A stretch of 64,000 bases of DNA from contig OZ242011.1 in NCBI GenBank assembly GCA_965204755.1, forward strand, positions 320,001-384,000, read 5' to 3'. Positions 9,245-58,193 of the stretch are shown piece by piece (position 1 is the first letter of the stretch; every line of letters begins with the position of its first letter). The notes beneath the pieces are model-generated. The model was not told where the DNA came from. It saw nothing but the letters and a program-made list of their open reading frames with translations, and did no database searches. The stretch is from Candidatus Marinacidobacterium sp. GTDB taxonomy: Bacteria > Acidobacteriota > Vicinamibacteria > Marinacidobacterales > Marinacidobacteraceae. The position numbers and the translations under genes are program-made.

Positions 9245-10746
9245 CGCCCCGCTCCCGGCGGGCCGGCGGCCCCCGTCGGGTCCGTCTCGCCCGTCCCGCC
9301 GGTCCCGTCCGGCTCGCCGGCGCGTTCGAAGCCGCCGCCGAGGGCCAGGAAGAGGTTCACCCGGTTGTCGAGGCGGGCGCGGCGGCGCGAGAGGTGGGCG
9401 GCCTCCGCCAGCAGCGCCGCCCGCTCGGCGTCCAGCGCCTCCCCCCGGGAAGCGAGGCCGCTCCGCCGGAGGGCCTCCGTCCGCCGGAGCGCGCGCCGGC
9501 TCTCTTCGAGCGCGGCGGCGGCGCGGTCGGCGATTTCCGCGAGCGCCGACTCCGCCGCGAGCCCGGCCTCGACTTCCTGGTAGGCGGTGAGCGCCGCGTC
9601 GGCGTACTCCGCCAGCGCGGCGCGGTCGGCGGCCTCCTCCCGCCGGATCTCCGCCCGGAGGCGGCCGCCGTGGAAGATCGGCGCGGCGATCCCGGCGAGC
9701 AGACTCCAGACCGAGAAGTCCCCGTCCACCAGTCGGCGGAGCCCGGTGGTGGCCGTGCCCACGGCGCCGGTGAGCCGGAACTGCGGGTAGCGCGCCCTCC
9801 GGGCGATGGTCGTGAACTCCCGCGAGGCCGCCAGCCGCCGCTCGGCGCGGGCCACATCCGGCCGCCGCGCGATCAGGTCCGCCGGGACGCCGGCCGGCGC
9901 CGGGGCGATCTCCCCCGGGAGGCCGGCGTCGAGCGTCCAGCCGGGCCCCGGGGCGCCGTCGGGGTAGTCGGTCACCAGGACCTCGATGGCCCGGACCGCC
10001 GCCCCGAAGGCTTCCCGGCGGACCGCCGCTTCGGCCTGCGCCTCGGCGGCGCGCGCCTCGGCGGCGTCCACCGAGGCCAGCGGGACCTCGCCGATCCGCG
10101 CCCGCCGCCGCATCCAGCGCGCGGCCTCCTCCCGGTTCGCCGCCGCCGCCCCGGCGAGGCGGGCCCGCTCCCGGGATTCCACCGCGAGGAAGTAGAGCCG
10201 CGCCGCCTGCCCGGCGAGGGAGACGCGGGCGCCCGCCGCTTCCAGCACCGCCGCCTCGAACCCGGCGTTCGCCGCCCGCGCCCGGGGCGTGGCGGAGTTC
10301 CACAGGGCCGCCTCCCAGGACAGGTCGAGCGAGAGCCCGTAGGCCACATATTCGGTGGAGAGGACTTCGCCTTCGGCGAGGCCGGGGATCGGCAGGCCGA
10401 TGAAGTTCCGCCGCTCGGCCAGCCGGGACGCGCCGGCGTCGGCGCGCGGGAACAGCGCGCTCCGCGCGGCGCCGGCTTCCGCGGCGGCCTGCGCCAGCCG
10501 CGCCGCCGCCCGTTCGAGGTCGAGGTTGCGGGCCAGCGCGCGCTCCACCACCCGGTCGAGTTCCGGTTCCCCGAAGGAAGTCCACCAGTCGGCCGGGGCG
10601 GCGCCGGGGGTCTCCGGCGCCGCCGCCGGGCTCGGCTCCGCGGCGAAGTCCAGTTCCGGTTCACTGACCGGCGCCCGGAGCCCGCCGCAGCCGGCGGCCG
10701 CCGCCGTGACCGTTGCGACGGCGAGGGCCGTTCCCGCTGCTCGCAT
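9241..10746 (-). CDS. Efflux outer-membrane factor lipoprotein (NodT/OprM family)
   Basis: Lipobox AAGC, DWWTSFGEPELDR, PADLIARRPDV, LFLALGGG; first gene of the RND trio. Confidence 0.93.
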   Translation of the reverse strand: MRAAGTALAVATVTAAAAGCGGLRAPVSEPELDFAAEPSPAAAPETPGAAPADWWTSFGEPELDRVVERALARNLDLERAAARLAQAAAEAGAARSALFPRADAGASRLAERRNFIGLPIPGLAEGEVLSTEYVAYGLSLDLSWEAALWNSATPRARAANAGFEAAVLEAAGARVSLAGQAARLYFLAVESRERARLAGAAAANREEAARWMRRRARIGEVPLASVDAAEARAAEAQAEAAVRREAFGAAVRAIEVLVTDYPDGAPGPGWTLDAGLPGEIAPAPAGVPADLIARRPDVARAERRLAASREFTTIARRARYPQFRLTGAVGTATTGLRRLVDGDFSVWSLLAGIAAPIFHGGRLRAEIRREEAADRAALAEYADAALTAYQEVEAGLAAESALAEIADRAAAALEESRRALRRTEALRRSGLASRGEALDAERAALLAEAAHLSRRRARLDNRVNLFLALGGGFERAGEPDGTGGTGETDPTGAAGPPGAGR

Positions 10747-15594: not shown

Positions 15595-17688
15595 TTACTT
15601 CCCGGCTTCGGGAAGCGCCAGCGCGACATAGGACTCGGGCACCCGTCCGCGCTGCCCGGTCTGCACCACGATGAACTGCCGGCCTTCGTGGAGGTAGGTC
15701 ATCATCCCGTACATCCCCGGCGCCGGAAGTTTCAAACTGCCCACCTTCTCGCCGGTCTTCTTGTCGTGGGCGTTCAACACCGGCGGCCCGGCCATTCCCT
15801 CGGTCGTGAGCAGCAGGTCGCCGCTGACCATCAGGATCGCCCGGCCCTGCCCGCCGACCCCGGTGAGGTCCACGCCTTCGAGCGCCGGATGGTTCTTGAT
15901 CCGGTCGTTCGGCTCGCCCACCGGCTTCCACCAGAGATGCTCGCCGGTGTTCATGTCGATCGCGGTGACCCGGCTGTACGGCGGCTTGTAGATCGGCAGC
16001 CCCTGCGGCCCCGGAACGCCGATGGTGCGGAAGTTCACCCAGTCGGAAACGGTTTCGCCGATGGTCGTGCACTTGCCGCCCGGCGAAGTGCAGTCGTGCT
16101 CCGGTTGGTCGGCGTCCACGCCCGGCTGCACCATGCGGCCCGAACAGGACGGCCCGGAGGACTGGTAGAGGATCCCGGTGGTCGGGTCGAGCGCCGCCGG
16201 GTGGGTGATGTTCACGCCGGCGGTGCTCCCGCAGGCGATCCACCCCTTGTTCTCGTCATACCCCTTCGGGACGGGAGGCATGTACGGCCCGCCGATCCGG
16301 TACTGGCCGGTGATCTCGAGCGCCTCCTGGTGGAGTTCGGGGGTATAGGCGATCAGGTTCTCCGGGGAGAGGTCGAGCGGCTCGAGCGGCTCGGGAACCG
16401 TCGGCCAGGGCTGGGTTTCGGCGAGTTTCTCGCCGGGCACGATGGACTCGGGCGCTTCGCGTTCCTCGATGGGCCAGACCGGCTCGCCGGTGTCCCGGTG
16501 GAAGGCGAAGGTGAACCCCTGTTTCGTGGTCTGGATCGCCATCGGCACGGACTCGCCGTCCACGGTTACATCCGCCAGGATCGGGACATTGGGGAGGTCG
16601 TAGTTCCAGATGGGGTGGTGCGTCGTCTGGAAGTGCCAGACCCGTTCGCCGGTGTCGGCGTCGAGCGCGATGACGCTGGTGCCGAACAGGTTGTCCCCCG
16701 GACGGAATCCGCCGTAGAAGTCGATCGTCGGCGCGTTCGTCGGGATGTACACGATCCCGCGGTCGAGGTCGGCGGAGAGCGGCGCCCACGACGAAACATC
16801 CCCGGTCCACCGCCAGGCGTCGTTCTCCCAGGTGTCCATCCCGAACTCCTCTTCGGAGCGGGGAATCACATGGAACTTCCACTTGTGTTCGCCGGTCTTC
16901 GCGTCGTAGCCGAGGATGTCGCCGGGGATGTTCTCGATGCGGGTCTGGTGGTAACCCTGCGCGTGCGAGTTGCCGACGACCACGGTCCCGTTCACCACGA
17001 TGGGCGGCGAGGAACTGGTGATGTATCCGACCGTCGGCGGAAGCCCCTCGTAGGGATCGTAGTTGTGGCCGAAGTCGGCGAGCAGGTCCACCACGCCGGT
17101 CTTCGGGAAACCGGGAATGTCCACCGGCTTCCCGAAACCCTCGAGGTGGTCGCCGGTGAGGCCGTCGAGGGCGTGGAGGAAGAACGCCGGGCTGATCACA
17201 TAGATGACGAGGCGGCCGTCCACCATCGCGTGCCCCACGCCCTTGCCGTAACTGGAGCGCATGGACTCTTCCCAGCGGCGGGTGGCGGGTTCGCGGTAGG
17301 TCCAGACCGTTTCGCCGGTCGCCGGATCCATGGCGACCACCGTCCGCCGGTAGCCGACGACGGTGTAGAGCAGTCCGCCGATGTAACTCGGCGTGGACTT
17401 GGAGAGGAAACTGGGTTTCGGCCCGTAGTTGTCGCCGCGCCACATCCAGGCGATTTCCAGGTCCTCGAAGTTCCCCGCGTCCACCTGGTCGAGCGTCGAG
17501 GAGCGCGTGCCCCAGGCGTCGCCGCTCTGGTACCGCCACTCGCCTTCCGGGTTGCCCCGGTCCTGGGCGGACGCGGCCGGCGCGAACGCGCCCGCGGACA
17601 GCCCGAGGAAGAGGAGCGCGGCGGCGGCGGAGGCGAAGGACCGCCGGGAGGCCGTCCGGGCCGGAAACAACATCGGGGGGATCGTCAT
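15595..17688 (-). CDS. Periplasmic PQQ-dependent dehydrogenase (quinoprotein glucose dehydrogenase-like beta-propeller)
   Basis: C-terminal 697 aa of ORF 15595..21639: signal peptide, GEWRY..GD, ALDADTGERVWHFQTTHHPIWNYD, KPPYSRVTAIDMNTGEHLW. Confidence 0.9.
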   Translation of the reverse strand: MTIPPMLFPARTASRRSFASAAAALLFLGLSAGAFAPAASAQDRGNPEGEWRYQSGDAWGTRSSTLDQVDAGNFEDLEIAWMWRGDNYGPKPSFLSKSTPSYIGGLLYTVVGYRRTVVAMDPATGETVWTYREPATRRWEESMRSSYGKGVGHAMVDGRLVIYVISPAFFLHALDGLTGDHLEGFGKPVDIPGFPKTGVVDLLADFGHNYDPYEGLPPTVGYITSSSPPIVVNGTVVVGNSHAQGYHQTRIENIPGDILGYDAKTGEHKWKFHVIPRSEEEFGMDTWENDAWRWTGDVSSWAPLSADLDRGIVYIPTNAPTIDFYGGFRPGDNLFGTSVIALDADTGERVWHFQTTHHPIWNYDLPNVPILADVTVDGESVPMAIQTTKQGFTFAFHRDTGEPVWPIEEREAPESIVPGEKLAETQPWPTVPEPLEPLDLSPENLIAYTPELHQEALEITGQYRIGGPYMPPVPKGYDENKGWIACGSTAGVNITHPAALDPTTGILYQSSGPSCSGRMVQPGVDADQPEHDCTSPGGKCTTIGETVSDWVNFRTIGVPGPQGLPIYKPPYSRVTAIDMNTGEHLWWKPVGEPNDRIKNHPALEGVDLTGVGGQGRAILMVSGDLLLTTEGMAGPPVLNAHDKKTGEKVGSLKLPAPGMYGMMTYLHEGRQFIVVQTGQRGRVPESYVALALPEAGK

Positions 17689-17795
17689 CGGGAAGGTCCT
17701 CTCTCGCGCGGGCCGCCCGCCTCCCCCGCGGAGGGCGGCGGCGGGCGGCGAGCGCGGAATCCTACCGCCCGGCGCCCCGGCCGAGCCGTCCGGGC

Positions 17796-19994
17796 TCACC
17801 GCAGGACGAGGAACAGGTTCGAGTAGTCGTCCGTCCAGCGGTAGGCCTCTCCCGGCTCGGCGGCCTCCCCGGAAAACGGCCGGGCGCGGGAGAGGACGCT
17901 CGGGTCGGTGACGAAGTCGGAAGACCAGGTGATGAGCGCCCAGGTGGTCTCGTAGCGGTAGGCCTCCGGGTCCGGCTCGGTCTCGGTGAGCAGGGAGATG
18001 GCGCCGAGCGCGAGCGCCTGCGCCCGGATTACCGGCGCCAGGTCCACATGGCGGTTGGAGATGTGGGCGGCGATCACGCCGCCGGGGGCCAGCCGCCGCC
18101 GGTAGAGGTCGAACGCCTCGGCGGTGAGCAGGTGGACCGGGACGGCGTCCCCGGTGAAGGCGTCGAGGACGAGGACATCCCAGGGCGCCTCCCCGGCGGC
18201 TTCCTCCCGCTCGAGGCTGAGCCGCCCGTCGCCGAGGACGACCTCGACTTCCCCGGCGGCGTCGTCCAGATAGGTGAAGTAGCGGCGGGCCACCCGTTCG
18301 ACCTGCGGGTCGAGTTCGTAGAAGCGGAACCGGTCGCCGCTCCGGGAGCGCGCCGCCAGCGAACCGGCGCCGAGCCCCAGGATCCCCACCGAGAGCGGCT
18401 GCCCGGCGCGCCGCTTCGGGTGGCGGTCGAGCGCCGTCTTCACCCCGGTGCCCTCGTAGTAGTAGAGCATCGGCTCCCGACGGCGCCCCGGCGCGAGGCG
18501 CTGCGACCCGTGGCCGATCCCGCCGTGCCAGAGGTCGCGCCGCCACTCCGGGGTGTCCGGCGAGTCTTCCATCACCCGCACCGCGCCGTAGAAGTTCCGG
18601 CTGGCGTGGAGCGGCCTCCGGTGCTCCAGCCAGGTTACGGCGAGCGCCAGCCCGGCCACCCCGGCGAGGGCGCCCCGGAGCGCGGCGCGGGGCAGGCTCC
18701 GGGAGGTCGAGGCCGCGCCGGCGAACGGGGCGGCGGCGCCGAGGACCAGGGCGAGCGGGTATTCCCAGGTGTTCGGGAACAGGAGCGGGCTCAGCAGCGA
18801 GGCGGAGAGCCCGCCCGCCGCGCCCCCGGCGGTGAGGGAGAGGTAGAAGCCGGTCAGCCGGGCCGGCGCCGGGCGCCGCCGGGCGATCTCGGCGTGGGCG
18901 GTCCAGCCGGCGGCGAACAGGAAGGCGAGGCCGGCGGCGGCGTGCGAGAGGAGCGGCCGGTCGAGCCCGGTGGTGATGTCCGCGAGCCAGACCAGCAGGC
19001 AGGCGGCGGCGAGCAGGAAGACCGCCGGGGTCAGCGCGCGCCGCGGGAAGCGGTCCGGCGCGCCGAAGGCGAGGACGAAGGTGACCAGGTACACCGCGAG
19101 CGGGGCGATCCAGAGGAACGGCGCGGCGGCCACATCCCGGGTCAGATGGGTGGTTACGGAGACCAGGGCGAAGGACGCCGCGGCCGCGAGGAGGGCGGGC
19201 GCGAGGCGGGCGGCGAGGCGGGGCCGGGCCGGGGGCGGCGGGTCGGCGGCGGGGTCGGCGGGCGGGGGCGGTGTTCCGGCGGCTGGGTCTGGGGCCGGGG
19301 GCGGCGAGTCGGCGGCGGCCGTCGGTGGCGTTCCGGCGGCCGGGGCGGCGGCCGGGGGCGGCGGGTCGGCGGCGCGGCGGGTGAGCAGCGCGCCGGCGCC
19401 GACGGTGGCCGCGCCGAGGAGGGCGAATCCGGCCGTCCACCAGCCGGCCTGGGCGGCGACGCCGAGGAACGGCTCCACCGCGACCGGGTAGAGCAGGAGG
19501 CCGAGGAGCGAACCGGTGTTCGAGACCGCGAAGAACCGGTAGGGCGAACCGGAGGTCCCCTTGCGTCCGCCGCCCCCGGCCAGCCAGGCGGAGACCAGCG
19601 GGGTGGTCGCCGCGCCGAGGACGAAGGGCAACCCCGGCCCGGCGAGCAGGGTGAGCAGGATCCGCGGCCCCGGCGCCTCGCCGCCCGCCGGCGCCCACCC
19701 GGCGGCCGGCAGCGGGGGGAGGAAGAACAGGAGGGCGGCGACGACGAGCGCGGCGTGGACGGCCACCTGGCGGCGCCGCGGGACGCGCGTGGCGAGCAGG
19801 TGCGCGTAGAGGTAGCCGCCGAGCAGGGCGGTCTGGAAGAAGAACAGCGCCACCGCCCAGACCATCGGCGCCCCGCCGTACCAGGGCAGCAGCGCCCGGG
19901 CGGCGAGCGGCTGCACGGAGAAGAGCAGGAACGCCCCGAGGAAGATCGCCCCCCCGGCCAGCCACCGCGCCCCCCGGAGGGGGTCGATCCTCAA
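17796..19994 (-). CDS. Fused membrane protein/spermidine synthase-like SAM-binding protein (5' end uncertain, open into the repeat array)
   Basis: FLGAFLLFSVQP...FFQTALLGGYLYAH, PYRFFAVSNTGS, LGLGAGSL, YELDPQV, GDGR, VLDAFTGDAVPVHLLT, HISNR, WTDDYSNL. The coordinate given is the last in-frame TTG before the conserved body. Confidence 0.88.
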   Translation of the reverse strand: MRIDPLRGARWLAGGAIFLGAFLLFSVQPLAARALLPWYGGAPMVWAVALFFFQTALLGGYLYAHLLATRVPRRRQVAVHAALVVAALLFFLPPLPAAGWAPAGGEAPGPRILLTLLAGPGLPFVLGAATTPLVSAWLAGGGGRKGTSGSPYRFFAVSNTGSLLGLLLYPVAVEPFLGVAAQAGWWTAGFALLGAATVGAGALLTRRAADPPPPAAAPAAGTPPTAAADSPPPAPDPAAGTPPPPADPAADPPPPARPRLAARLAPALLAAAASFALVSVTTHLTRDVAAAPFLWIAPLAVYLVTFVLAFGAPDRFPRRALTPAVFLLAAACLLVWLADITTGLDRPLLSHAAAGLAFLFAAGWTAHAEIARRRPAPARLTGFYLSLTAGGAAGGLSASLLSPLLFPNTWEYPLALVLGAAAPFAGAASTSRSLPRAALRGALAGVAGLALAVTWLEHRRPLHASRNFYGAVRVMEDSPDTPEWRRDLWHGGIGHGSQRLAPGRRREPMLYYYEGTGVKTALDRHPKRRAGQPLSVGILGLGAGSLAARSRSGDRFRFYELDPQVERVARRYFTYLDDAAGEVEVVLGDGRLSLEREEAAGEAPWDVLVLDAFTGDAVPVHLLTAEAFDLYRRRLAPGGVIAAHISNRHVDLAPVIRAQALALGAISLLTETEPDPEAYRYETTWALITWSSDFVTDPSVLSRARPFSGEAAEPGEAYRWTDDYSNLFLVLR

Positions 19995-21757
19995 AGCGCC
20001 GATCCGCAAGCGCCCGCTCCGAAGGGGGTCGATCCGCAAGGGGCTCGATCCGTGGGGTGTCGATCCACGAGGGGGTCGATCCGTAGGGGCTCGACCCACA
20101 TGGGGGTCGATCCAGAAGGGGGTCGATCCGTCGGGGGTCGATCCGCAATGGCTCGATCCGTCGGGGGTCGATCCGCAAGGGCTCGATCCGTCGGGGGTCG
20201 ATCCGCAAGGGCTCGATCCGTCGGGGGTCGATCCGTAGGGTTCTCGATCCGTAGGGGTTCGATCCACAAGGGGGTCGATCCAGAAGGGGCTCGATCCGAA
20301 GGGCTCTCGATCCGTAGGGGCTCGACCCAGAAGGGGGTCGATCCGAGGGGGCTCGATCCGAAGGGGGTCGATCCGAGGGGGCTCGATCCGAAGGGGCTCG
20401 ATCCGAAGGGGCTCGATCCGAAGGGGCTCGATCCGAAGGGGCTCGATCCGTAGGGGGCTCGATCCGTAGGGGGCTCGATCCGAAGGGGCTCGATCCGTAG
20501 GGGGCTCGATCCGAAGGGGGTCGATCCGCAGGGGTCGCGATCGGCAGGGTCTCGACCCGTCGAGGCTCGATCCGCAGGGGGTCGATCCGCAAGGGTCGCG
20601 ATCCGCAAGGGGCTCGATCCGCAGAGGTCTCGATCCGAAGGGGGTCGATCCGCAAGGGTCGCGGTCCACAAGGGGCTCGATCCGCGGGGGGTCGAACGGC
20701 AAGGGGCTCGATCCGCAGGGGGCTCGATCCGAAGGGGCTCGATCCGTCGGGGGTCGATCCGTCGAGGGTCGATCCGTCGAGGGTCGATCCGTAGGGTTCT
20801 CGATCCGTAGGGGCTCGATCCACGGGGGGCTCGATCCACAAGGGGGTCGATCCGTAGGGGCTCGATCCGTAGGGGCTCGATCCGTAGGGGCTCGATCCGT
20901 AGGGGCTCGATCCGTAGGGGCTCGATCCGTAGGGGTCTCGATCCGAAGGGGGTCGATCCGCATGGGTCGCGATCCGCAGGGTCTCGATCGGTAGGGTCTC
21001 GATCGGCAGGGTCTCGATCGGCAGGGTCTCGATCGGCAGGGTCTCGATCCGTGGAGGCTCGATCCGCAGGGGGTCGATCCGCATGGGTCGCGATCCGCAA
21101 GGGGCTCGATGTGTGGAGGCTCGATCCGCAGAGGTCTCGATCCGAAGAGTGTCGATCCGCAAGGGTCGCGGTCCACAAGGGGCTCGATCCGCGGGGAGTC
21201 GAACGGCAAGGGGCTCGATCCGCAGGGGGCTCGATCCGTAGAGGCTCGATCCGGAGGGGGTCGATCCGCCGAGTTTCGACCCGCAGGGGGCTCGATCCGT
21301 GGGGTGTCGATCCGAAGGGGGTCGATCCGAAGGGGGTCGATCCGAAGGGGGTCGATCCGCGGAGTCTCGACCAGCAAGGGGTTCGATCCGCCGGGGCTCG
21401 ATCCACTTGGGCCTCGATCCGCAGGGGTCTCGATCCGCAAGGGGGTCGATCCGCCGGGGTCTCGATCCGCAAGGGGCTCGATCCGCAAGGGGCTCGATCC
21501 GTGGGGGCTCGATCCGTCGGGGCTCGATCCACAGGGGCTCGATCCGCCGGGGCTCGATCCACGAGGGGGTCGATCCGAAAAGGCTCGATCCACGAGGGGG
21601 TCGATCCGCAGGGACTCGATCCGTAGGGGCTCGATCCAAGGGATCGATCCGACGAAACGCGACTCGTAAGGACTCGATCCGCAGGGGCTCGATCCGTAGG
21701 GGCTCGATCCAGAAGGGGGTCGATCCGAGGGGGCTCGATCGGCAGGGGGCCGATCCC
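19979..21757. repeat. Satellite-like tandem array of 14-16 bp units, consensus GGGG(C/G)TCGATCCG(T/A/C)A(G)
   Basis: Visible directly. About 115 units estimated from length divided by period, with an internal higher-order duplication (about 20563-20730 versus 21053-21238). Confidence 0.97.
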
Positions 21758-21867
21758 GCGCACCGCCGCTTCGGCGAACCGCCGCCGTCGGGCGGCGCTT
21801 TCCCGCAGGCCTTCCCGCGCGCCGCCGAGGGCGCTTCCGCTCATCCCTTCACGCTCCTCCCGCTGCG

Positions 21868-21874
21868 TAGAATA
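21868..21874. promoter_or_regulatory. Overlapping divergent -10 hexamers (TAGAAT on +, TATTCT on -)
   Basis: The only AT-rich patch between divergent ATGs at 21844 (-) and 21886 (+); GGAGGAG follows on the minus strand. Confidence 0.5.
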
Positions 21875-21885
21875 CGGGCCGCGCC

Positions 21886-22473
21886 ATGCCGAAACCCAAG
21901 TCCCGCCCCTCCCGTCCGCCCGCCGCTTCCGCCCCGCGTCCCGGCCCGAAACCGCCGGCGAAACGGCCCGCCGAGCCGACCGGCCGGGGGAGCGGCGCGC
22001 TGCTGCTCGTCGCCGGCCTCCTCGCCCTCGGCGGCGCGGTCTTCTTCATCTCCGCGTTCGAGGACGACACCACCGAGACCGCCTCCGCGATCTCGTACGA
22101 CACGCCGACAACGGAAGCGACCCAGGCGGCCGTCAAGACCTTCCCCTACTACGACAGCGCCGACGAAGCCAAGCCCTTCCCGGTGACGCTGCCCCCCTCG
22201 TCCTACAGCAACGAAACCCTGCAGCGCGCCTACGGCCTCGCCAAGGAGATCCCGGAAGTGCTCGCGCAACTCCCGTGTCTGTGCGGCTGCCACATGCAGG
22301 CGGAGGATCACGGCAGCCTGCTCGACTGCTATGTGGACGACCACGCCGCCACTTGAAGCACCTGTCTCCAGGAGGTCCTCCTGGCCAAGCAGATGCACGA
22401 CGACGGCGAAGAACCGGAAGCGATCCGCGAAGCGATCTACCGCCACGACTTCACGGACATCCCCCTCCGCTGA
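21886..22473 (+). CDS. PCYCGC-motif family membrane-anchored protein, predicted selenoprotein (Sec at TGA 22354-22356; 195 aa)
   Basis: TM anchor and LAQLPCLCGC...DHGSLLDCYVDDHAAT-TGA-STCLQEVLLAKQMHDDGEEPEAIREAI. Family-like sequence continues in frame after the TGA to a stop at 22471-22473. Confidence 0.82.
22368..22384 (+). promoter_or_regulatory. Bacterial SECIS-like hairpin
   Basis: CCAGGAG-GTC-CTCCTGG: perfect 7-bp stem, G-containing apical loop, starting 11 nt after the in-frame TGA. Confidence 0.75.
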
Positions 22474-22529
22474 CCTGACCGCGCCGAAGGGCGCCACCCC
22501 GCCGCCGACCGGCGGGTAACACCGACGGG

Positions 22530-22598
22530 TAACGACCGGCCGGCAACAACTGGCCGGCAACAACTGGCCGGCAACGACTGGCCGGTAACGACTGGCGG
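22530..22598. repeat. About five copies of a 14-bp tandem repeat (caacRactggccgg)
   Basis: Visible directly, at the left edge of the STAND island. Confidence 0.85.
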
Positions 22599-22745
22599 GC
22601 CGCCGCCCGCGGCGGCCGGGACGGGCAAGGCGGCCCCGCCCGATCGGGGCGGGATTCACGCCGACAGTCGAGCCGCCTCGAAGAGTCCTGCGGCCGACCG
22701 CGAGTGCCGGTCGTTATCGCAACTCGGCGCGTAGCGAAACCGGAC

Positions 22746-23609
22746 TCACCGCACCGACCGGAGTTCGGCGAGTTCCGCGAGGAGGTCCTCGATCGTCTCG
22801 TCGCCCGGCCATGCGCCTTTCAGCGCGTCCCGGTCGAAGTTCCTCGCTCGCTCGACGACTCCGGGAGGAATCGCCGCGGCGCCGGGAACATGGCCGCAAG
22901 GCGTTCGGTCGAACGCCTCATGCCGGTCGACCCGCGGCATCATGTGTCGAGCCAGCATCGCGCGCGGGCTTCCGTCGGCCCGGAAATGCACGACCCCGGT
23001 CACCGTGGCGTCCGTGCCCCACAGCGAACGCAACGCCTCTCGATCCACGGCCCCGGCGTCGAGTTGCCCGGGAAGGAAACTGCCGTCCTTCAGCCGGAGG
23101 AGGAACCGCCCGTCGTCGTGTTCGATGCCGTCGAGCCGACCGGTCACGATGAATCCCCTCGCCGGCGGGAGCATCCCGAGTCGCGCTTCGGCGCGGGCGG
23201 CCGCCGCTCGATCCCAGGCGAAGCCCCGCCCCCCGGCCTCGTCCGGCGTCAGCGCATACCCGGCGTCGGGATACCCGGCCGCCCGACCGAAGGCGAGCAT
23301 CGCTTCGAGTACGCCCCGGTCGTCGCACATACCGGGCGCCGTCTCCGATTCCCCGGTAACCGACCGAACGGCCTCCCCCACCAAGTCGAGCGCGGTGTCC
23401 TCGAGATCCACTCGTTCGCGCCCCTTCCGGAGCGGCGAGTACACGAACCGGTCGCGGGCGGTCTCGACCAGGCAGAACGCCCGAAAGCCGATCGAACCGG
23501 CGCCGAACCCGGTGATCGCGAAAGCCAGCGTCTCTTCGAGCCACTTCGGGCGCGCGCCGCGGGCGGTCGAGATCCCGGTGGCCCGGAGGCGCGTGACGCG
23601 TTCGGCCAA
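22746..23609 (-). CDS. Hypothetical protein, possible OB-fold C-terminal region; true 5' end probably near 23715
   Basis: Protein-like composition; ends WPGDETIEDLLAEL. The frame stays open and plausible upstream of the TTG (YTLRVDGLDARGGEIPKATLTKIVGALRR). Confidence 0.65.
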   Translation of the reverse strand: MAERVTRLRATGISTARGARPKWLEETLAFAITGFGAGSIGFRAFCLVETARDRFVYSPLRKGRERVDLEDTALDLVGEAVRSVTGESETAPGMCDDRGVLEAMLAFGRAAGYPDAGYALTPDEAGGRGFAWDRAAAARAEARLGMLPPARGFIVTGRLDGIEHDDGRFLLRLKDGSFLPGQLDAGAVDREALRSLWGTDATVTGVVHFRADGSPRAMLARHMMPRVDRHEAFDRTPCGHVPGAAAIPPGVVERARNFDRDALKGAWPGDETIEDLLAELAELRSVR

Positions 23610-23837: not shown

Positions 23838-26800
23838 TCAGCCTGCCTCCGCCTCGGCGCGGCGGGCGGCCGGCGGTCTCACATCCAGCACGCGCACTTC
23901 GACGCGATCCCGTTCCTCGGGAGTCAGGTTCTCGACCAGTCGGCGGTGCAACTGCTCGCGCGTCTCCGGGCGGATCCCCTTCGGAGGGCGCGCGATAGGT
24001 CGTGAGGCGCCGGAAACTCCGAACCACAGGACGAGGTAGATGCCTCGCCCCATCGCTTCCGGCATGGCCGCGTACTTGGGAATCAATTGCTCCCGTACGG
24101 CGGTCCAGAGATCGCGATGCCACTGGCGCTTGATCTCGATCGGTATGGCGAACCCGTCGCAGCGCACCAGCAGGTCCGACCGCGCGCCCCCGGCGTGGCG
24201 CGCCTCCGGCGCGATCGGGCAAGCGCTTCCCAGCCGCCCGCGCAGCGCGCCGAGCAGCGCGTCGCGACACGATTCCTCGGGTTTCGGTTCGACCGCGCCG
24301 CCATGCGAGTCCTCGTTCCAGAACGGCCGCCACGCGTTCTCGTCACTTCCGGCGAACTCCGCGGCCAGGTCGTCGAGATGGTCGGCGACGAACGCGGAGA
24401 GGTCCGCCGCGTTCGCCGGACGCCCCCCGCGCAGGGCCTCGGCGACGCGATCGGCGGAAGCGTGGCGGAAGCCGACATCGGCCACGGTCCGCCGCCGGCG
24501 ATCCCGGGCCGCCTCCAAGCGAGGGCGCCACCGGGACAGCGCCCGATCGGCGATGAGGGATTCGAGCGCCCTTCCGGCGTCGGCTCCCGCGGAGCGGCCG
24601 AGTCGGCGAATGAAGTCCGCGATCCGTTCGGGGGCCCGGTCGGCCAACCCCAGGACCCTGGCTTCGTAAGGCTCCTCCGGCCGGAACATGGCGCCGAAAC
24701 GGGTGACCAGCAGGCGGAGGGTGACCGGGTCCATCCCCTCGTCCGGAACACGCGCATCCAAGTCGGGGCACAGGAACACGGCGGCCTCCCGCGCGGCTTC
24801 CTCGTCCCGCGTCAGGGTTTCGAAGCGGTCACGGTAGGCGTCGGGCGCCGCCGCGAGACCCGCAGCCACCCAGTGCGGCCGCTGGGCCACGGTCATGCTC
24901 TTCGATGCCGCCTTTCGCGCGACAACGCGAAGCAACCCGTCCCGGTCGGCGTGGGCGATCGCAGCCCAGAGGAGCAGGTCGAGAACCTGCAGTTGACCGC
25001 CCAGACCGCGCACGGGAAAGCCGCTGAGCAGCGGCAGGGCCGCCTGGCGCGCTACGCCGGCGTATTGCCGGTCTCCCACCAGCAGGTCGAGGTGTACCCG
25101 ACTCTCGCTGCCTTTCGCGATCTCCGCCTTCGCCCAACGGACGAGAACTCTCGCCGTGAGTTCGGGTCGCGAGCGAGCGAGTTCCCGATACCAGGGCGGC
25201 GGCTCCAGGCGGTTCGTCGGGGCGGTGAAATAGAAGGCGAGCGCCCGAAGCCACTGATCGTCGCCCAGCGTCTCCAGGCGCTCGGGACACTCCCTCTCCA
25301 TGACTTCGAGACCGGCGAGGAACGGCCACGCGAGCGAGTGGATCCCCGAACTCGCGTGGAAATCGAAGATCGCGTCCTCGTCCGGGACATCGTCGCGCCA
25401 CGGCGCGCGCGCCAGGGCGCCGACGACCACCCGGCGCAGGGCCGGATCGGAGAGGCGCCAGCCCCGGCCCGGCGCGCTCAGGTACTCCTCGAGCGATCCC
25501 AGGTATTCCCAGGCGAGGCGGCGGAGCAGCGCCGGCGAGGCCCGGTTCTCGCGGAACGCCTCGAGTTCGTCCTCGATCCGTCGAGCCATCGCCGAGTCCC
25601 TCCTCCGCCGCTCCTCGACGAATGGCCGTTCCTGCTCGCGCAAGTCGAGATACCCGGCGGGGAGATCGGTCTTGAGCAACCGGCGGAAACGGGCCGCCAT
25701 TCCGCGACGGAAAGCCCGGCCAATCAGTTCCTTCGCGCGGATCCTTTCCGCGCCGGCCCTTTCGACCGCCCGTTCCAGCAACCAGTCCGCGAGAAGCGGT
25801 CGAGCGATCGCCATCTCGACCGCCAGGGAGAGGCAGAAGCGACCGAAGCCTTCGGGCGGGCGGGCGATTCCCAGGGTCGCCGCCACTTCCCGAACCGCCG
25901 GGTCGAAGTCCTCGGTTTCCGGACACCGCTCCCATCCTTCGCGCCAGAGTTCGACCAGTCGCTGCGGACGCGCTTCCAGCCACTTTCGGACCCGGAGCAC
26001 CGCTCCGTCCGAGCCGACGGTCGAGCGCTGCCGGCTTTCCCGGCCGAGGCGAAGCCAATCGTAGATCTCGGTAGTGGAAGCGCCATCGCCATGCTCCTCC
26101 ATACCCTGCGTCACCAACTCCAGCGGGAGGTGGGCGAGGAACCGATTCTCGAGCGCGGCCCAATGGTCGGGCAAACGAACCCGCAGCGCGGCGAGCAGCC
26201 CCGGAAGGCGCCCGGAGTGTTCGGCCTTCGTCAGGCTCCGGAGCCAGAAGCCGTCGTACCTCCCGACCAGTTGTTCCGGCTGGTCGAGCAGGTAGTCCCA
26301 GACCTGCTCGGGGGTGATCTCCTCCGGATACATCCGTCCCAGCAGAGTCCCCAACAGTTCGCGATAGTGATCGCTAACGACGCCGCTTCGAATGTCTCCC
26401 GCCAGTCGCCGAAGTTCGGCGCGCCGTCTCTTTTCGTCGACGCAGTTGTGGATGAAGGCGTCGAGCGCGTAACGGGTGACTTCGTACCATCTCGTCCCGT
26501 CGCGGGCGACTTCCATGAGTCGGTCGGCAAACGCGGGCATCGGCCGGCCGAGGCTCAGGGCCCGCGCCGCGATTCCGGCGAGTACTTGCGCCGAACGGCC
26601 GCGATCGGCGGATTCGAGTTCGGCGCGGAGCGTCGGCGCCATTTCGGGAACCGCCAGCAGTCGGAGGAAGTCCGCGGGGAAGCGGTGCGCGCCGAGTTCC
26701 GGCGCCGTCGCGCGCATCTCGCGGAGCAACCGGCGCTTGTCGGTCGGGGTGAAGTCGTGGATGTCGCCGTAGGCCGCGATCCCCACCGGATCCCGAACGA

Positions 26801-27893
26801 GGAGATGGGGCCGCGCCTTCGCCGAATGCGCGGCCAACCAGGCAGCCAAGCCGCGGAGCGGCGACGGAATGGCCTCCTTGTCGGTGCTCAACAGCGCGAG
26901 GACGCGGCCCACCGGCAAACCCTCCTCGATCCGGCGAGCCAGGTACCGCGCACCCAGGAACTCCGCCACTTGCCGGTGCGCCGGGGAGAACCGCTCGCTT
27001 CCTCCGTCGGAAGTGAAGAGCCCCGCGCCGAGCGCCGCCCGAGCCGCGAAGTCGGACGACGGCGCCAGGGAGTCGATCGCCGGCCAATCGTCGGTCGCGT
27101 CCTTCGCGTACCGCGAGCACCCCTCGGCGCCGGCGAGCAGGAGCGCCGCGTCGAGTTCACCGGCCGCATCCACCAGCGCGGCGGCGGCGAACCGTTCCTG
27201 CCCGGAGTGGAGATGCTCGTCGTTGTATTCGCCGGTCAGGCGCTCACAGGCCGCTTCCAGGACTTCGCGATAACTGTCCTGCCAAGTCCCGCCGGAGGCG
27301 GCGAAAGCGCGGATGGAATTCAGGAGGGCGAGCGGGTTCCGCAGCCACGCATGGAACCCCCGCGCTCTCGCCGCCTTCAGGAAACCGTCCGCCTCGGTCG
27401 AAGCCGGCGTCGAGGCAGGCAGGGAGCGGACGAACCGCTCGATCTCGAAGTCCCGAAGCGGTTCGAGCCGCAACACCTTCACTTCTCCCCCGGGCGCGGC
27501 CTCTTCCAGCGGGGTGACATCCGTCCGCCCGAACCAGTCCGCGGCGCGGCACGAAAGCCGGAACCGGCGGCGGCCCAAGGCGCGAAGGCGCTGCACCACC
27601 CGGTCGAGCGGCTCGCGCGGATCGCCGGACGCCGCGCGCACCTCGTCGAGCCCGTCGATGAAGAGCGTTCCCTCGCCGACCGGCTCTTCGGCCGGCAACC
27701 GCAGGAACTCGCGCGCCGAAAAGTACCGGGCGGCGTCGCCGAGCGCCTCCGCTTCCCGCCGGAACTCGAAGGTCTTGCCCGAACCGGGGTCGCCGAGCAG
27801 GACGAAGGCGGCCTCGCTTCGGAACGCGGACAGCGGCCGCGCCCCGCGGGCGGCATTCGCCGCTTCGGTGACCGTCCGTACGATCGGCTTCAT
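23838..27893 (-). CDS. NACHT/STAND-type NTPase with helical central region and C-terminal PD-(D/E)xK nuclease-like domain (1351 aa)
   Basis: Walker A FVLLGDPGSGKT, Walker B LFIDGLDE, LSCRAADW, RNPLAL, HRQVAEFLGARYL; C-terminus E...RSDL...IPIEIK...QL...Y...GIYLVLWFG. ATGA overlap with the upstream gene. Confidence 0.85.
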   Translation of the reverse strand: MKPIVRTVTEAANAARGARPLSAFRSEAAFVLLGDPGSGKTFEFRREAEALGDAARYFSAREFLRLPAEEPVGEGTLFIDGLDEVRAASGDPREPLDRVVQRLRALGRRRFRLSCRAADWFGRTDVTPLEEAAPGGEVKVLRLEPLRDFEIERFVRSLPASTPASTEADGFLKAARARGFHAWLRNPLALLNSIRAFAASGGTWQDSYREVLEAACERLTGEYNDEHLHSGQERFAAAALVDAAGELDAALLLAGAEGCSRYAKDATDDWPAIDSLAPSSDFAARAALGAGLFTSDGGSERFSPAHRQVAEFLGARYLARRIEEGLPVGRVLALLSTDKEAIPSPLRGLAAWLAAHSAKARPHLLVRDPVGIAAYGDIHDFTPTDKRRLLREMRATAPELGAHRFPADFLRLLAVPEMAPTLRAELESADRGRSAQVLAGIAARALSLGRPMPAFADRLMEVARDGTRWYEVTRYALDAFIHNCVDEKRRRAELRRLAGDIRSGVVSDHYRELLGTLLGRMYPEEITPEQVWDYLLDQPEQLVGRYDGFWLRSLTKAEHSGRLPGLLAALRVRLPDHWAALENRFLAHLPLELVTQGMEEHGDGASTTEIYDWLRLGRESRQRSTVGSDGAVLRVRKWLEARPQRLVELWREGWERCPETEDFDPAVREVAATLGIARPPEGFGRFCLSLAVEMAIARPLLADWLLERAVERAGAERIRAKELIGRAFRRGMAARFRRLLKTDLPAGYLDLREQERPFVEERRRRDSAMARRIEDELEAFRENRASPALLRRLAWEYLGSLEEYLSAPGRGWRLSDPALRRVVVGALARAPWRDDVPDEDAIFDFHASSGIHSLAWPFLAGLEVMERECPERLETLGDDQWLRALAFYFTAPTNRLEPPPWYRELARSRPELTARVLVRWAKAEIAKGSESRVHLDLLVGDRQYAGVARQAALPLLSGFPVRGLGGQLQVLDLLLWAAIAHADRDGLLRVVARKAASKSMTVAQRPHWVAAGLAAAPDAYRDRFETLTRDEEAAREAAVFLCPDLDARVPDEGMDPVTLRLLVTRFGAMFRPEEPYEARVLGLADRAPERIADFIRRLGRSAGADAGRALESLIADRALSRWRPRLEAARDRRRRTVADVGFRHASADRVAEALRGGRPANAADLSAFVADHLDDLAAEFAGSDENAWRPFWNEDSHGGAVEPKPEESCRDALLGALRGRLGSACPIAPEARHAGGARSDLLVRCDGFAIPIEIKRQWHRDLWTAVREQLIPKYAAMPEAMGRGIYLVLWFGVSGASRPIARPPKGIRPETREQLHRRLVENLTPEERDRVEVRVLDVRPPAARRAEAEAG

Positions 27894-29161
27894 CGGTCCG
27901 GCTCCACCCAGTATCCCGCCGGAGCAGAGAGGAACTCCCCCAACGACATGCCGTCCGGGCCGACCAACACCTCGCTCGCGTGCGGGTAGCGCTCCCGGAA
28001 CGCCGCCAGACCTCGATGACGGGGCCCCCGCCTCCGGATGGTGACTTCGATGGCCGCGAGTTTGGGGCCCCGTTCGACGACGAAGTCCACTTCGAGCGCG
28101 CCTTCCCGCCAGTAGCGGACCCGCTCCCCGATCTCCCGGGTGTTCAGCAGGTGCGCCCCCACCGCGCTCGCCGCCAGCCGGCCCCAGAAGGTCCGATCGG
28201 CCCGCGCTTCCTCGAACGAACGCCCCGAGTCGAAAGTCATCAGGGAAGTGTCGAGGACATTGAGTTTGGGGCTCGAAGGCCGCATCGAGAACGGTCCGGC
28301 GTACTGTTCGAGCCCGGCGACGAGGCCGATGCGTTCGAGGAGGTCGAGATAACGGGCGAGCGTGGTCGTGTTCGACTTGTCCGCCAACTGGCCGCGCATC
28401 TTGTTGTAGGAGAGGATCTGCCCCGACAGGCCCGCGGAGAACTCGAAGAGCCGGGTCAGGAGCGCCGGCCGGTCGATCCGCGCCCTGGCGATCAGGTCGC
28501 GCTCGAGGCTCGCGTCCACCACCGATCGGCGGATGCAGGCGCGCCACGACCGGGGATTCGCCTCGTCCGGCCGGGCGCCCGGATAGCCGCCGAAGAACAG
28601 GAACCGGTCGAGGTCCACGCCGAAGGCCGCCTTCATCTCCCCGAAGGACCACGGGCCGGTCTCGATCATGTCCAACCGGCCCATGAGACTCCCGCCCGAG
28701 CCGTGCTGCATCATCAGCGGCGACGAACCCGAAATCACGACCCGCAACGGGCAGTCCCGAAAGCGGTCCGCGTCCCAGAGCCCTTTCACGGTTCGGGACC
28801 AGTGGGGCACGCCCTGGATTTCGTCGAGGGCGAGAACGAACCCCCGAGGATCGTTCTCCGCCTGTTCGCGCGCCCACTGCCAGATCTCCGCCAGCCAGTT
28901 CGCGTCCCGAACCACCAGCGGCGCGAACGGCGCACCCGGAAGGTCCGGCAGGTCCGGCGCCCGGTCGCGGTGGGCGGTCGACCCCATCCGGCCCAACGCG
29001 ACCAGGCCCGATGGCAACCCGCAACGCCCCAACGCCTGGCGAATGATGGTCGTCTTCCCCGTCCGGCGAGGCCCGAAGACCGCCTGGACCCGCTCCGGCG
29101 CCTCCACCAGCCGCTCCCGCAGGACCGCCACCTGCTCCCGCTCGAACTCCTGCCGCCGCAT
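27890..29161 (-). CDS. AAA_14 ATPase with DUF4143 C-terminal domain
   Basis: GPRRTGKTT, LDEIQ, SGSS, FFGGYPG, SSPKLNVLD, YWREGALEVDFVV, AIEV. Confidence 0.92.
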   Translation of the reverse strand: MRRQEFEREQVAVLRERLVEAPERVQAVFGPRRTGKTTIIRQALGRCGLPSGLVALGRMGSTAHRDRAPDLPDLPGAPFAPLVVRDANWLAEIWQWAREQAENDPRGFVLALDEIQGVPHWSRTVKGLWDADRFRDCPLRVVISGSSPLMMQHGSGGSLMGRLDMIETGPWSFGEMKAAFGVDLDRFLFFGGYPGARPDEANPRSWRACIRRSVVDASLERDLIARARIDRPALLTRLFEFSAGLSGQILSYNKMRGQLADKSNTTTLARYLDLLERIGLVAGLEQYAGPFSMRPSSPKLNVLDTSLMTFDSGRSFEEARADRTFWGRLAASAVGAHLLNTREIGERVRYWREGALEVDFVVERGPKLAAIEVTIRRRGPRHRGLAAFRERYPHASEVLVGPDGMSLGEFLSAPAGYWVEPDR

Positions 29162-29167
29162 GACGGG

Positions 29168-29173
29168 ATTATG
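29168..29173 (-). promoter_or_regulatory. -10-like hexamer CATAAT 6 nt before the ATG (leaderless start)
   Basis: AT-rich patch at 29168-29208; no Shine-Dalgarno sequence before ATG 29161. Confidence 0.5.
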
Positions 29174-29331
29174 ACGATTTGTTCCATTTTGGGCTACTTC
29201 GTAATATCGAGGGACGGCGGTGGCGCCGTTCTCCGGGATCGAGAGAAGCCCGACCCCGCGGGGTACTCCCGGCGCCGCACGGTGGCGGTCCCCGCCGCTC
29301 GGTCGACCGAACCGGTTCCGCCGTCTCCCGG

Positions 29332-30930
29332 CTACCGGAGAGGCCGCCGGGAGCGCGCGGATCCGGCCCCGGCGGCGCGCGCCTCGCCGGCGACGCGGAC
29401 GCGGACCCGGCGGGCGTCACCGGGGAGGTAGGCGAGCGGGAGGTCCTCGCGTTCGACCACTTCCGGCGAGCCCTCGACCGCTCCCGCGGCGACGGCGCGG
29501 CGCCCGGCCTCCTCGGTCGCTTCGCGGAAGGCCTCCTCGCGGGTGGCGCCGTGGAACACCCGGTCCACCTCGCCGCCCACCCGCGCCACCGCGGCGCCGA
29601 CCGCGTTCGCCACCTCGCCGTGCGGCGGCCGCTCGACGCGGGAGATCCCCGGCAACTCCGCCGGGAGCAGGAACGCGCCGCCGCCGACCGCCAGCAGCGG
29701 GAGGTCGCGCGCGTCCGGCTTCATCCGGTCCACCGCCTCCCCGAGCCGCTCGGCGAGTGATCCGGCGAACCGGCGGAGCGCGCCGGCGCGGAGCCCGCGG
29801 ACCGCCGCCCGGTCGCCGAGCCCGACCCATCCCGCCGCCACCGCCGCGTCGGTGGCGGTCAGCGTCGTCCCGCCGAAGACCAGCGCCGACTGCTCGAGGC
29901 GGAACCCCACGCTCGACGGGCCGACCGCGGCGCCGTCCGGGGACACGACGCTCCCGCCGCCGATCGCCAGCGACAGCAGGTCCGGCATCCGGAACAGCGT
30001 CCGCACGCCGCCGATCTCCACTTCCCGCGGCGCTTCGCGGGGGAACCCGGCGGCGAGGCAGCCGATGTCCGTCGTGGTGCCGCCCACATCCACGACGACC
30101 GCGTCGCGGAGGTCGGAGAGGAACGCCGCGCCGATCATGCTGTTCGTGGGGCCCGAAGACAGGCAGAGGACCGGCGTTTCGGCGGCGGCGGAGACTTCCG
30201 CCACCGTGCCGTCGTTTCGCGCGAGGAACAGCGGCGCGGCGATGCCGCTCGCTTCGAGCGCGCGGCGGAAGGACGAGAACACCCGGCGGGCGAGCGGGCC
30301 GAGCGCGGCGTTCAGGAGGCCGGCGTTCTCCCGGCCCAGCAGGCCGAGGCGGCCGAGGCGCCGGGACTGGGTGATCCGGGCGTCCGGGTGGACTTCCGCG
30401 AGGATCCCGGCGGCGCGTTCCTCCGCGGAGCCCTCGATCGGGGCGAACACCGACGAGAGCGCGATCTCCCGAATCCCGGCGGCGCGGATTTCCCGGCCGG
30501 CGCGGGCGACTTCCCGCTCGTCGAGCGGCGCGATCGGCCGCCCGTCGCACTCGGCGCCGCCTTCCACGGAGAACACCGGGCCGCGCACCCGGTCGGCGAG
30601 GCGGGGCGGCCAGTCGCAGAACGGGGGCAGCGAGGCGCTCGCCGGAAGCCCCACCCGGACCGCCGCGACCCGCGCCAGGCCGTCGCCGGTGACCACCGCG
30701 TTCGTGAAGTGCGTCGTGCCGATGACCACCCGCCGCACCGCCGACTCCTCGCCGGCGGCGGCTTCGCGGAGGGCGCGGGCGATGCCGCCGGTCACCTCCG
30801 GGGTGGTCGGCGTCTTGACGGCGCGGCGGACGGCGCCGTCCGCCATGAGCGCGGCGTCGGTGTGCGTGCCGCCGACATCCACGCCGACATCGAAGACGGC
30901 CGGCGGACCGGCGGCCGTCCCCGAGGTCAC
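29332..30930 (-). CDS. Hydantoinase/oxoprolinase family protein (subunit A-like)
   Basis: VGVDVGGTHTDA, IGTTHFTNAV, SSGPTNSM, VVDVGGTTTDIG, EVANAVGAA. GTGA overlap with the DUF917 gene. Confidence 0.92.
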   Translation of the reverse strand: MTSGTAAGPPAVFDVGVDVGGTHTDAALMADGAVRRAVKTPTTPEVTGGIARALREAAAGEESAVRRVVIGTTHFTNAVVTGDGLARVAAVRVGLPASASLPPFCDWPPRLADRVRGPVFSVEGGAECDGRPIAPLDEREVARAGREIRAAGIREIALSSVFAPIEGSAEERAAGILAEVHPDARITQSRRLGRLGLLGRENAGLLNAALGPLARRVFSSFRRALEASGIAAPLFLARNDGTVAEVSAAAETPVLCLSSGPTNSMIGAAFLSDLRDAVVVDVGGTTTDIGCLAAGFPREAPREVEIGGVRTLFRMPDLLSLAIGGGSVVSPDGAAVGPSSVGFRLEQSALVFGGTTLTATDAAVAAGWVGLGDRAAVRGLRAGALRRFAGSLAERLGEAVDRMKPDARDLPLLAVGGGAFLLPAELPGISRVERPPHGEVANAVGAAVARVGGEVDRVFHGATREEAFREATEEAGRRAVAAGAVEGSPEVVEREDLPLAYLPGDARRVRVRVAGEARAAGAGSARSRRPLR

Positions 30931-57406: not shown

Positions 57407-57495
57407 GGAACGCCCGATTCTACCGCCGGGAACGGCCGCCCCCGCCGCCGCCGAGCCGCCGGAACGAGGGGCCTTCACCCCCGGTCGAGGCCGGT

Positions 57496-58179
57496 TCACG
57501 ATGTCTCCTCCCCGCCGGTCGGACGCCGGTAGCGGAGCGCGTAACCCGGAGTCGGGATCCCCGCCGCGAGGTCCGGCGCGGGTTCGGGAACGCCGTACGC
57601 GCTGCCCACGGGAACCACGCCGGCCCAGACGGACAGCGCGAGGTCCTCCTCGTCGTCCGCCGGCGGCCCGCTCCGCGCCTTCGCCGTGGCCTCGTCCAAC
57701 GGGAACGCCGCCACCGCGGTCGCCCGCAACTCGCGGGCGTCGGGCGGGCGGGCATCCGGCCCCCGCCCCGGAACGAGCCGGTCGAGGAGCACATCCAGGC
57801 AGCGGCGCTTCTCCGCCTCGTCTTCGACCGGCGTCGCCCGCCCCAAGGCGACCACCGACCGGTAGTTCATCGAGTGGTGGAACGCCGAACGGGCCAGGAC
57901 CAGGCCGTCGAGCAGCGTCACCGTGACGCAGGCCTCCACGCCGCCCGCGAGCAGCCGCAGGGCGCGGCTCGCCGCCGAACCGTGGAGCAGGAGCCGGTCG
58001 CCGTCGCGGGCGTACCCCATCGGGACCACGAACGGCGCGCCCCCGTCCGAGAACCCCACATGGGCGACCAGGCCCTCGTCGAGGATGCGCCGGATCACCT
58101 CCGGATCGTGCGAGCCGCGCCCCGGAATCCTCCGCACCCGGCTGCGGGGCGTCGGCGCGGACGAGCGCTCCGCCGTCAT
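57496..58179 (-). CDS. Pyridoxamine 5'-phosphate oxidase family flavin-binding protein
   Basis: ILDEGLVAHVGF, LHGSAASR, DGLVLARSAFHHSMNYRSVV, WAGVVP. Confidence 0.92.
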   Translation of the reverse strand: MTAERSSAPTPRSRVRRIPGRGSHDPEVIRRILDEGLVAHVGFSDGGAPFVVPMGYARDGDRLLLHGSAASRALRLLAGGVEACVTVTLLDGLVLARSAFHHSMNYRSVVALGRATPVEDEAEKRRCLDVLLDRLVPGRGPDARPPDARELRATAVAAFPLDEATAKARSGPPADDEEDLALSVWAGVVPVGSAYGVPEPAPDLAAGIPTPGYALRYRRPTGGEETS

Positions 58180-58193
58180 GCGGAGGGACGCCC

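Follow-up and report, generated by a model that had tools for sequence, protein, structure and literature searches.

An in-frame UGA in an acidobacterial CYCXC-family gene is very probably read as selenocysteine with the help of a conserved downstream hairpin

The closest described relatives of the gene analysed here are the CYCXC family (seleno)proteins, which NCBI curates as the equivalog family NF041379 (OS_HP4_CYCXC). In the available part of a 2022 review (PMC9312934) the family stands as 'Hypothetical protein OS_HP4' with a UxxC motif, and the section available from a 2026 review (PMC13188914) lists it as CYCXC family protein, PF13798, with UxxC and one selenocysteine (Sec). In these sections both reviews name Zhang and Gladyshev 2007 (PMC1976440, Olavius symbiont) as the source of OS_HP4. 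The accessible main text of PMC1976440 names OS_HP1-3 only and has no OS_HP4, and the name may originate in a supplement to that paper. OS_HP4 was not found in the accessible portion of the 2008 GOS paper, and the accessible main texts of BSepDB and of the 2016 ISME J paper make no mention of Acidobacteria or of the CYCXC family. A PF13798/PCYCGC protein from a Firmicute (Parageobacillus) is described in the available part of PMC13068155 as a lipoprotein of unknown function. For the phylum Acidobacteriota, table 2 of PMC12013277, the part of that source at hand, gives Occallatibacter riparius as a Sec user with three selenoproteins.

The RNA signal used for comparison was that of E. coli K-12 fdhF. 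The order of its elements is UGA-CACGGCCCAUC-GGUUGCAGGUCUGCACC, with 11 nt between the UGA and the upper stem-loop. The upper stem of this minihelix contains an unpaired U, and this bulged U matters for E. coli SelB.

The window, that is the whole 64-kb stretch of DNA that was analysed, has a G+C content of 73%. On its + strand an ORF opens with ATG at 21886 and ends in a plain ORF call at TGA 22354-22356, giving a protein of 156 aa. The frame beyond this TGA is open up to another TGA at 22471-22473, and translation of TGA 22354 as U results in a protein of 195 aa with Sec at residue 157, in the setting DDHAAT-U-STCLQEVLLAKQMHDDGEEPEAIREAIYRHDFTDIPLR. The DNA around the Sec codon reads GAC GAC CAC GCC GCC ACT TGA AGC ACC TGT CTC CAG GAG GTC CTC CTG G. 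An earlier sequence-only reading of this stretch had placed the end of the ORF at TGA 22354 and the open frame up to 22473; its coordinates and strings were right, and the tail that it quoted stopped at REAI. The residues M1 and K3 are nearly invariant in the protein alignment of homologues. When the window was scanned for in-frame TGA codons with coding-type composition on both sides (GC3 >= 0.85 and GC2 <= 0.62), 22354 was the only site found, and as no other TGA in the window has this two-sided coding signal the genetic code is not reassigned. A promoter and terminator scan of 21600-22800 found no site.

The translation scored 100.6 bits with NF041379 (cut-off 90, E 3.7e-29), residues 99-187 matching profile positions 2-88 of 90. 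The Pfam family PF13798 (PCYCGC) matched residues 108-185 with 39.4 bits, above its gathering threshold of 25. The protein shares with the NF041379 family the CxCxC ... H ... C ... H ... UxxC layout and the Sec position paired with Cys, and nothing essential sets it apart; particular to the window copy are a long Pro/Lys/Arg-rich N-terminal tail and a genome of 73% G+C. The Cys forms of PF13798 have PCYCGC, whereas the window protein has PCLCGC and carries Sec in place of the first Cys of the distal CxxC, and the Pfam score is modest. In the alignments of 33 and 87 sequences P130, C131, C133 and C135 are conserved and G134 is nearly invariant. The invariant residues are P99, L102, Y116, A119, P123, L126, Q128, P130, C131, C133, C135, H142, L145, C148, H153 and A154. 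Relatives have already been named 'CYCXC family (seleno)protein' by NCBI. The assignment to the PCYCGC/PF13798 proteins with a downstream H...CxxC, first made from sequence alone, was borne out by the Pfam match and the alignment, and the accompanying guess that Sec-containing members may already be catalogued proved right in view of NF041379 and the available sections of the two reviews. The features of the gene are collected in Table 1.

Table 1. Features of the CYCXC-family gene and its predicted product, in positions of the window.
Feature	Position	Strand	Basis or remark
Full-length CYCXC-family selenoprotein gene (predicted)	21886..22473	+	195 codons + stop; NF041379 and PF13798 scores
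N-terminal tail, residues 1-35, 9 K/R, 1 D/E	21886..21990	+	Charge count; probably cytoplasmic
Hydrophobic helix, residues 36-59, ALLLVAGLLALGGAVFFISAF	21991..22062	+	AF2 helix; putative membrane anchor
CLCGC motif (C131, C133, C135), family CxCxC signature	22276..22290	+	Columns invariant in 33 and 87 aligned sequences
UxxC: TGA (Sec157) AGC ACC TGT (Cys160)	22354..22365	+	Codon alignment of homologues; model
C-terminal translated part after UxxC, LQEVLLAKQMHDDGEEPEAIREAIYRHDFTDIPLR	22366..22470	+	Fixed stop in clade; Cys-form alignment; pLDDT
SECIS-type hairpin CCAGGAG-GUC-CUCCUGG	22368..22384	+	7 bp, loop GUC; codes L-Q-E-V-L-L-A

A scan of species-representative genomes gave 333 confirmed loci, the best 80 of which, with 81 gene copies, were kept. 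These 80 loci are all from Acidobacteriota MAGs, and the closest are from Vicinamibacteria or Candidatus Marinacidobacterium. At the codon homologous to TGA 22354 the 81 copies have TGA (48), TGC (27) or TGT (6), and TAA or TAG was found in none of them though the search pattern admitted both. Pairing of Cys with TGA among homologues had been suggested as a check on the gene, and within these best 80 of 333 loci it was found as 48 TGA vs 33 TGC/TGT. The protein collection contained 122 relatives at E <= 0.001. Among the 120 that were listed, 47 end one residue before the Sec position and finish ...H-A-[AS]-T, 72 run through H-A-S-T-C-x-x-C to the C-terminus like the window read-through, and one is an odd variant; the expectation that standard callers truncate the gene is thus seen in 47 of the 120 database representatives, which stop exactly before this position. 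The closest relatives of the window protein are 75-92% identical to it among the matches listed. In the protein alignment the Cys forms have a Cys at the position of the window's TGA, and their C-termini align with the segment that follows it in the window.

A quick maximum-likelihood tree was built from 82 copies on an alignment of only 104 columns, the hairpin-encoded ones included; in it the window fell in a Sec-only clade of 27 members (SH-aLRT 95), with a Cys-only clade of 14 adjoining it. The tree needs six Sec/Cys changes, and its starred branches force at least two. In all 27 genes of the Sec clade the true stop lies exactly 38 codons past the TGA (TAG in 17, TGA in 7 and TAA in 3). 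Over these 38 codons, the columns that vary within the clade number 22, 19 and 31 for codon positions 1, 2 and 3, respectively. Amino acid identity to the window past the TGA (0.79-0.84 in close relatives) is about the same as that before it. The fixed stop, the excess of third-position changes and the equal identity cannot be explained by a real stop, a pseudogene or a sequencing error.

In several Acidobacteriota genomes CYCXC genes of the Sec and of the Cys type occur together. Locus L047 has the two forms in tandem, at 6397 and 6995, about 600 nt apart. They are on the same contig in L051/L067, and in the same assemblies in L024/L055, L029/L054 and L028/L068. That the Sec and Cys forms are kept together suggests that they are not simply interchangeable.

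The hairpin lies inside the coding sequence, 11 nt past the A of TGA 22354. Perfect 7-bp hairpins with loops of 3-6 nt are frequent in the window, with 100 on each strand, and 15 of its 716 TGA trinucleotides (8 of 360 on the + strand and 7 of 356 on the - strand) have such a hairpin beginning 8-20 nt downstream. The local fold of 81 nt had a z-score of -1.70, and 12 of 200 shuffles folded equally well. Taken alone, the window hairpin is within chance, and its significance comes from comparison with the relatives and not from the window sequence alone.

Among the best 80 of the 333 loci, together with the window, the hairpin occurs at one and the same offset in all 49 TGA copies; 47 of them form all seven Watson-Crick pairs and two form six. 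The same columns in the 33 Cys copies of these loci form 2-6 of the 7 pairs, and the hairpin is absent. Within the 49 TGA copies, pair 2 is C:G in 33 and A:U in 16 and is never mismatched; its change couples CAG (Gln) or AAG (Lys) to the synonymous CTG or CTT (Leu) two codons on. Pair 1 is C:G or U:A and pair 7 is G:C or A:U, each with four double changes, and compensatory changes therefore occur at three of the seven stem pairs (1, 2 and 7). In the 41 distinct rows of the alignment 99.3% of the cells are paired, vs 35-58% after a shift of the 3' partner by 1-3 columns. These rows contain 23 double-change cells, and their covariation score was reached by none of 500 shuffles. RNAalifold, run on the alignment, predicted de novo exactly the helix 22368-22384. 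The loop nucleotides G22 and U23, counted from the U of UGA, are invariant in the 49 sequences. The longer lower stem of the minimum free energy fold of the window is not conserved (66.6% of the cells paired). Rfam gave nothing at gathering level for the whole window, and for 21800-22700 at E <= 10 it gave no SECIS match and only non-SECIS hits at chance level. The proposed hairpin 11 nt after the UGA was in this way found to be conserved and covarying, and to be present in the TGA forms only.

The window hairpin resembles the fdhF minihelix in several respects. Counted from the U of UGA, both occupy nt 15-31; they lie immediately 3' of the UGA within the ORF, and both have GGUC at the loop, at nt 22-25 in fdhF and nt 21-24 in the window. 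A loop G and U at a fixed distance from the UGA, as in the E. coli type, are thus found here, and the fdhF likeness claimed earlier, in the 11 nt between UGA and upper stem and in the GU of the loop, holds against the E. coli K-12 DNA. The two differ in the size of the loop, which is 4 nt in fdhF and 3 nt in the window. They also differ in the stem: whereas the fdhF upper stem has an unpaired U, that of the window is a perfect 7-bp stem with no bulge, and the bulged U of the E. coli-type minihelix is replaced by a bulge-free perfect stem in 47 of the 49 copies. A counterpart to the longer lower helix of fdhF is not conserved in the CYCXC genes.

Cys/TGA pairs among homologues, a conserved 3' stem-loop and a conserved translated frame past the UGA, the marks of a bacterial selenoprotein gene, were all found at this locus, and TGA 22354 almost certainly encodes Sec. 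Searches for the Sec machinery gave no hits in the regions covered. ARAGORN called a tRNA-Sec neither in the window nor in any of the 48 TGA loci, Pfam reported no Sec-synthesis family among its matches to the 199 stop-to-stop ORFs of at least 150 aa in the window, and tblastn with E. coli SelA, SelB and SelD gave nothing at E <= 1e-3 in the window and 887,898 bases of flanks from the 80 loci. As sel genes need not be linked, their absence from the window and flanks does not count for or against the Sec reading. ARAGORN also called a 98-nt 'tRNA-Arg (ccg)' at 57195-57292 (- strand). This call falls within the VKOR-coding part of a VKOR-DsbA fusion gene (56045-58222), had no Rfam tRNA match even at E <= 10, and is probably a false positive. 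A similar call of 95 nt with a 4-base anticodon was seen in locus L018 at 9365-9459.

The arrangement of the predicted protein was examined by charge, conservation and modelling. Residues 60-95, which follow the hydrophobic helix, contain 1 K/R and 8 D/E. By the positive-inside rule the C-terminal domain would face outward, and the basic tail and single predicted helix are consistent with the membrane-anchored, probably extracytoplasmic protein proposed by the sequence-only reading. An extracytoplasmic place would be shared with PF13798, as the Parageobacillus member is a lipoprotein and the window protein has a putative membrane anchor. The AF2 model is all-helical with a mean pLDDT of 75.3, rising to 88-94 over residues 150-195, and it places U157 directly before a helix of residues 158-172. 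The start of a helix is the usual place for a redox-active CxxC.

Structure and profile searches gave little further information. Foldseek found nothing in the PDB at E <= 0.001 (best E 2.5), and in the same search no structural relative of the Cys3-His2-Cys-Sec-Cys domain was detectable. The sequence-profile search of the PDB gave a single hit with E 0.051, to the low-complexity N-terminus. With a natural Cys homologue, the best score in the ESM Atlas was 0.77, below the level of a lead. Longer fused forms were searched for and none was found, which the tool itself labels as weak evidence. The N-terminal domain of CcmH (PDB 2kw0) is, like the window protein as predicted here, small, helical, membrane-tethered, periplasmic and of CXXC type. 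It ranked second in Foldseek with E 4.6, a Foldseek probability of 0.14 and TM 0.21/0.45, and was kept as a lead only and not as a family assignment. Significant fold or sequence similarity to thioredoxin-fold or CcmH-like oxidoreductases was not found.

The neighbourhood of the gene was compared by all-vs-all BLAST of 2,839 flanking ORFs, many of which are shadow ORFs. In a Vicinamibacteria-like clade, synteny in divergent orientation is kept for both Sec and Cys forms (window 15598-19991, - strand; L002 1739-5973, - strand). Directly upstream of the CYCXC gene is a divergent gene of about 690 aa that resembles a fused MFS/spermidine synthase (NF037959, 61.7 bits), and behind it is a gene for a PQQ-dependent dehydrogenase. 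Genes resembling RlpA and DinB are found further downstream of the CYCXC gene in relatives. The conserved neighbours point to no function for the CYCXC protein.

Two tandem repeats lie close to the gene. The divergent intergenic space immediately upstream is filled by an array of 1.78 kb (19974-21756) with about 116 copies of a 15-nt unit at 77% matches. On both strands several frames run open through the array, and adjacent ORF calls are inflated to 1265-2014 aa. At no more than two mismatches, the array contains 55 matches to the unit, with one further match outside it (23535, - strand). Only about 30 nt separate the two divergent genes in relatives such as L002-L004, and L001 has only short unrelated repeats. 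The other repeat, at 22538-22600, has 4.5 copies of a 14-nt unit (91% matches) and begins 65 nt past the true stop of the gene. Further on, the - strand carries a large NACHT-type ATPase gene at 23841-27899 whose product resembles the antiphage protein EruA (NF058535); nearly the whole profile is covered, with a score of 750.8 bits, under the cut-off of 1000 bits. Adjoining it at 27893-29416 (- strand) is an AAA_14/DUF4143 ATPase gene. The region 23841-29416 looks like a defence-type island, and it breaks the synteny seen in relatives.

In the mechanism that we propose, the hairpin 22368-22384 would act as a bacterial SECIS during translation and recruit SelB with Sec-tRNA(Sec) to the ribosome paused at the UGA. 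Sec would be inserted at position 157, and the ribosome would continue to the true stop at 22471. The product would be a 195-aa CYCXC (OS_HP4 / PCYCGC, PF13798) selenoprotein with a basic cytoplasmic tail, one membrane helix and a helical domain outside. This domain has eight conserved Cys/His/Sec positions, C131-x-C133-x-C135, H142, C148, H153 and U157-x-x-C160. U157xxC160, at the N-terminus of a helix, may form a redox-active selenenylsulfide centre in the periplasm, and the other six Cys/His may hold a metal ion or structural disulfides. As a whole, the reading of UGA 22354 as Sec through a hairpin SECIS, in a 195-aa CYCXC member with a domain predicted to face outward, appears very probable to us.

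Other explanations of the UGA were weighed against the same evidence. If TGA 22354 were a genuine stop, the gene would encode a 156-aa protein, and the downstream similarity and hairpin would have another cause, for example a terminator or regulatory stem. This would agree with the callers that end the ORF here in 47 of 120 listed representatives and with a hairpin that is within chance when taken alone. However, the reading frame past the TGA is conserved over 38 codons, with its stop at a fixed position in all 27 clade members, and this segment can be aligned to the C-terminal ends of the Cys forms. A truncated protein would also lose the conserved CxxC. In addition, 21600-22800 contains no terminator-like site, and in the best 80 of 333 loci the position holds TGA but never TAA or TAG. 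We regard a genuine stop as highly improbable. Since TGA is one base away from TGC and TGT, it could also have arisen from one of these by sequencing error or by a recent pseudogenising mutation, but 48 loci, assembled independently and drawn from many Acidobacteriota lineages, share this TGA, and each of them has the hairpin. The window also sits in a Sec-only clade of 27 (SH-aLRT 95), and we give an error or recent mutation a negligible chance. SelB-dependent insertion of Cys at UGA has been proposed for some bacteria. The UGA could in a similar way be recoded via the hairpin for another residue, such as Cys, by a variant tRNA or SelB; the evidence from sequence shows recoding but not the residue inserted, and no machinery or tRNA was seen in the window or flanks. 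Against this, the Cys forms use plain TGC/TGT and have lost the hairpin, so that a costly recoding system merely for Cys would be odd, and the family is curated as a selenoprotein. Insertion of a residue other than Sec is in our view very unlikely.

With Sec as the inserted residue, the role of the protein could be another one than redox chemistry. It may bind or chaperone a metal such as Cu, Zn or Hg, with U157 and C160 joining the CxCxC and His residues as ligands. The crowding of the eight conserved Cys/His/Sec positions within about 30 residues is in line with such a role, as are the available parts of the reviews PMC9312934 and PMC13188914, which list UxxC or UxxU in metal-handling selenoproteins, with a cation-transporting ATPase, a CobW-like protein and a putative mercuric reductase as examples. 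The Firmicute PF13798 lipoprotein adjoins an Fe3+ binding protein, according to the section of PMC13068155 at hand. On the other side, the conserved neighbours in the best 80 of 333 loci include no metal transporter or resistance gene, and no known metal-binding fold was matched in the Foldseek comparison with the PDB. Metal handling is a serious possibility that we nevertheless consider rather less than even. The assignment of U157/C160 as an extracytoplasmic selenol/thiol redox centre, which we prefer, is speculative, and because the neighbours and the structure searches were uninformative we commit to this redox role only tentatively and somewhat short of an even chance. That the Cys3-His2-Cys-Sec-Cys domain is a new periplasmic Se-dependent module for redox or metal handling in aerobic Acidobacteriota seems unlikely.

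The observation is real, and the interpretation first made from sequence alone is supported. The gene belongs to a selenoprotein family that had been described before, and it is typical of those missed in annotation. Its entry should read as a 195-aa selenoprotein, as gene callers cut it at codon 157. The locus adds little new biology, because curation already covers the CYCXC family and the Sec in its UxxC motif. What remains of interest is the function of the CYCXC protein and an unusually clean SECIS covariation, which gives for Acidobacteriota the covariation-backed consensus YMAGGAR-GUN-YUCCUKR, 11 nt after the UGA. The Sec forms of CYCXC are spread across several acidobacterial classes, and the side-by-side Sec and Cys paralogues hint at different jobs for the two forms. 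The CYCXC protein is a small and tractable selenoprotein, and probably a periplasmic one.
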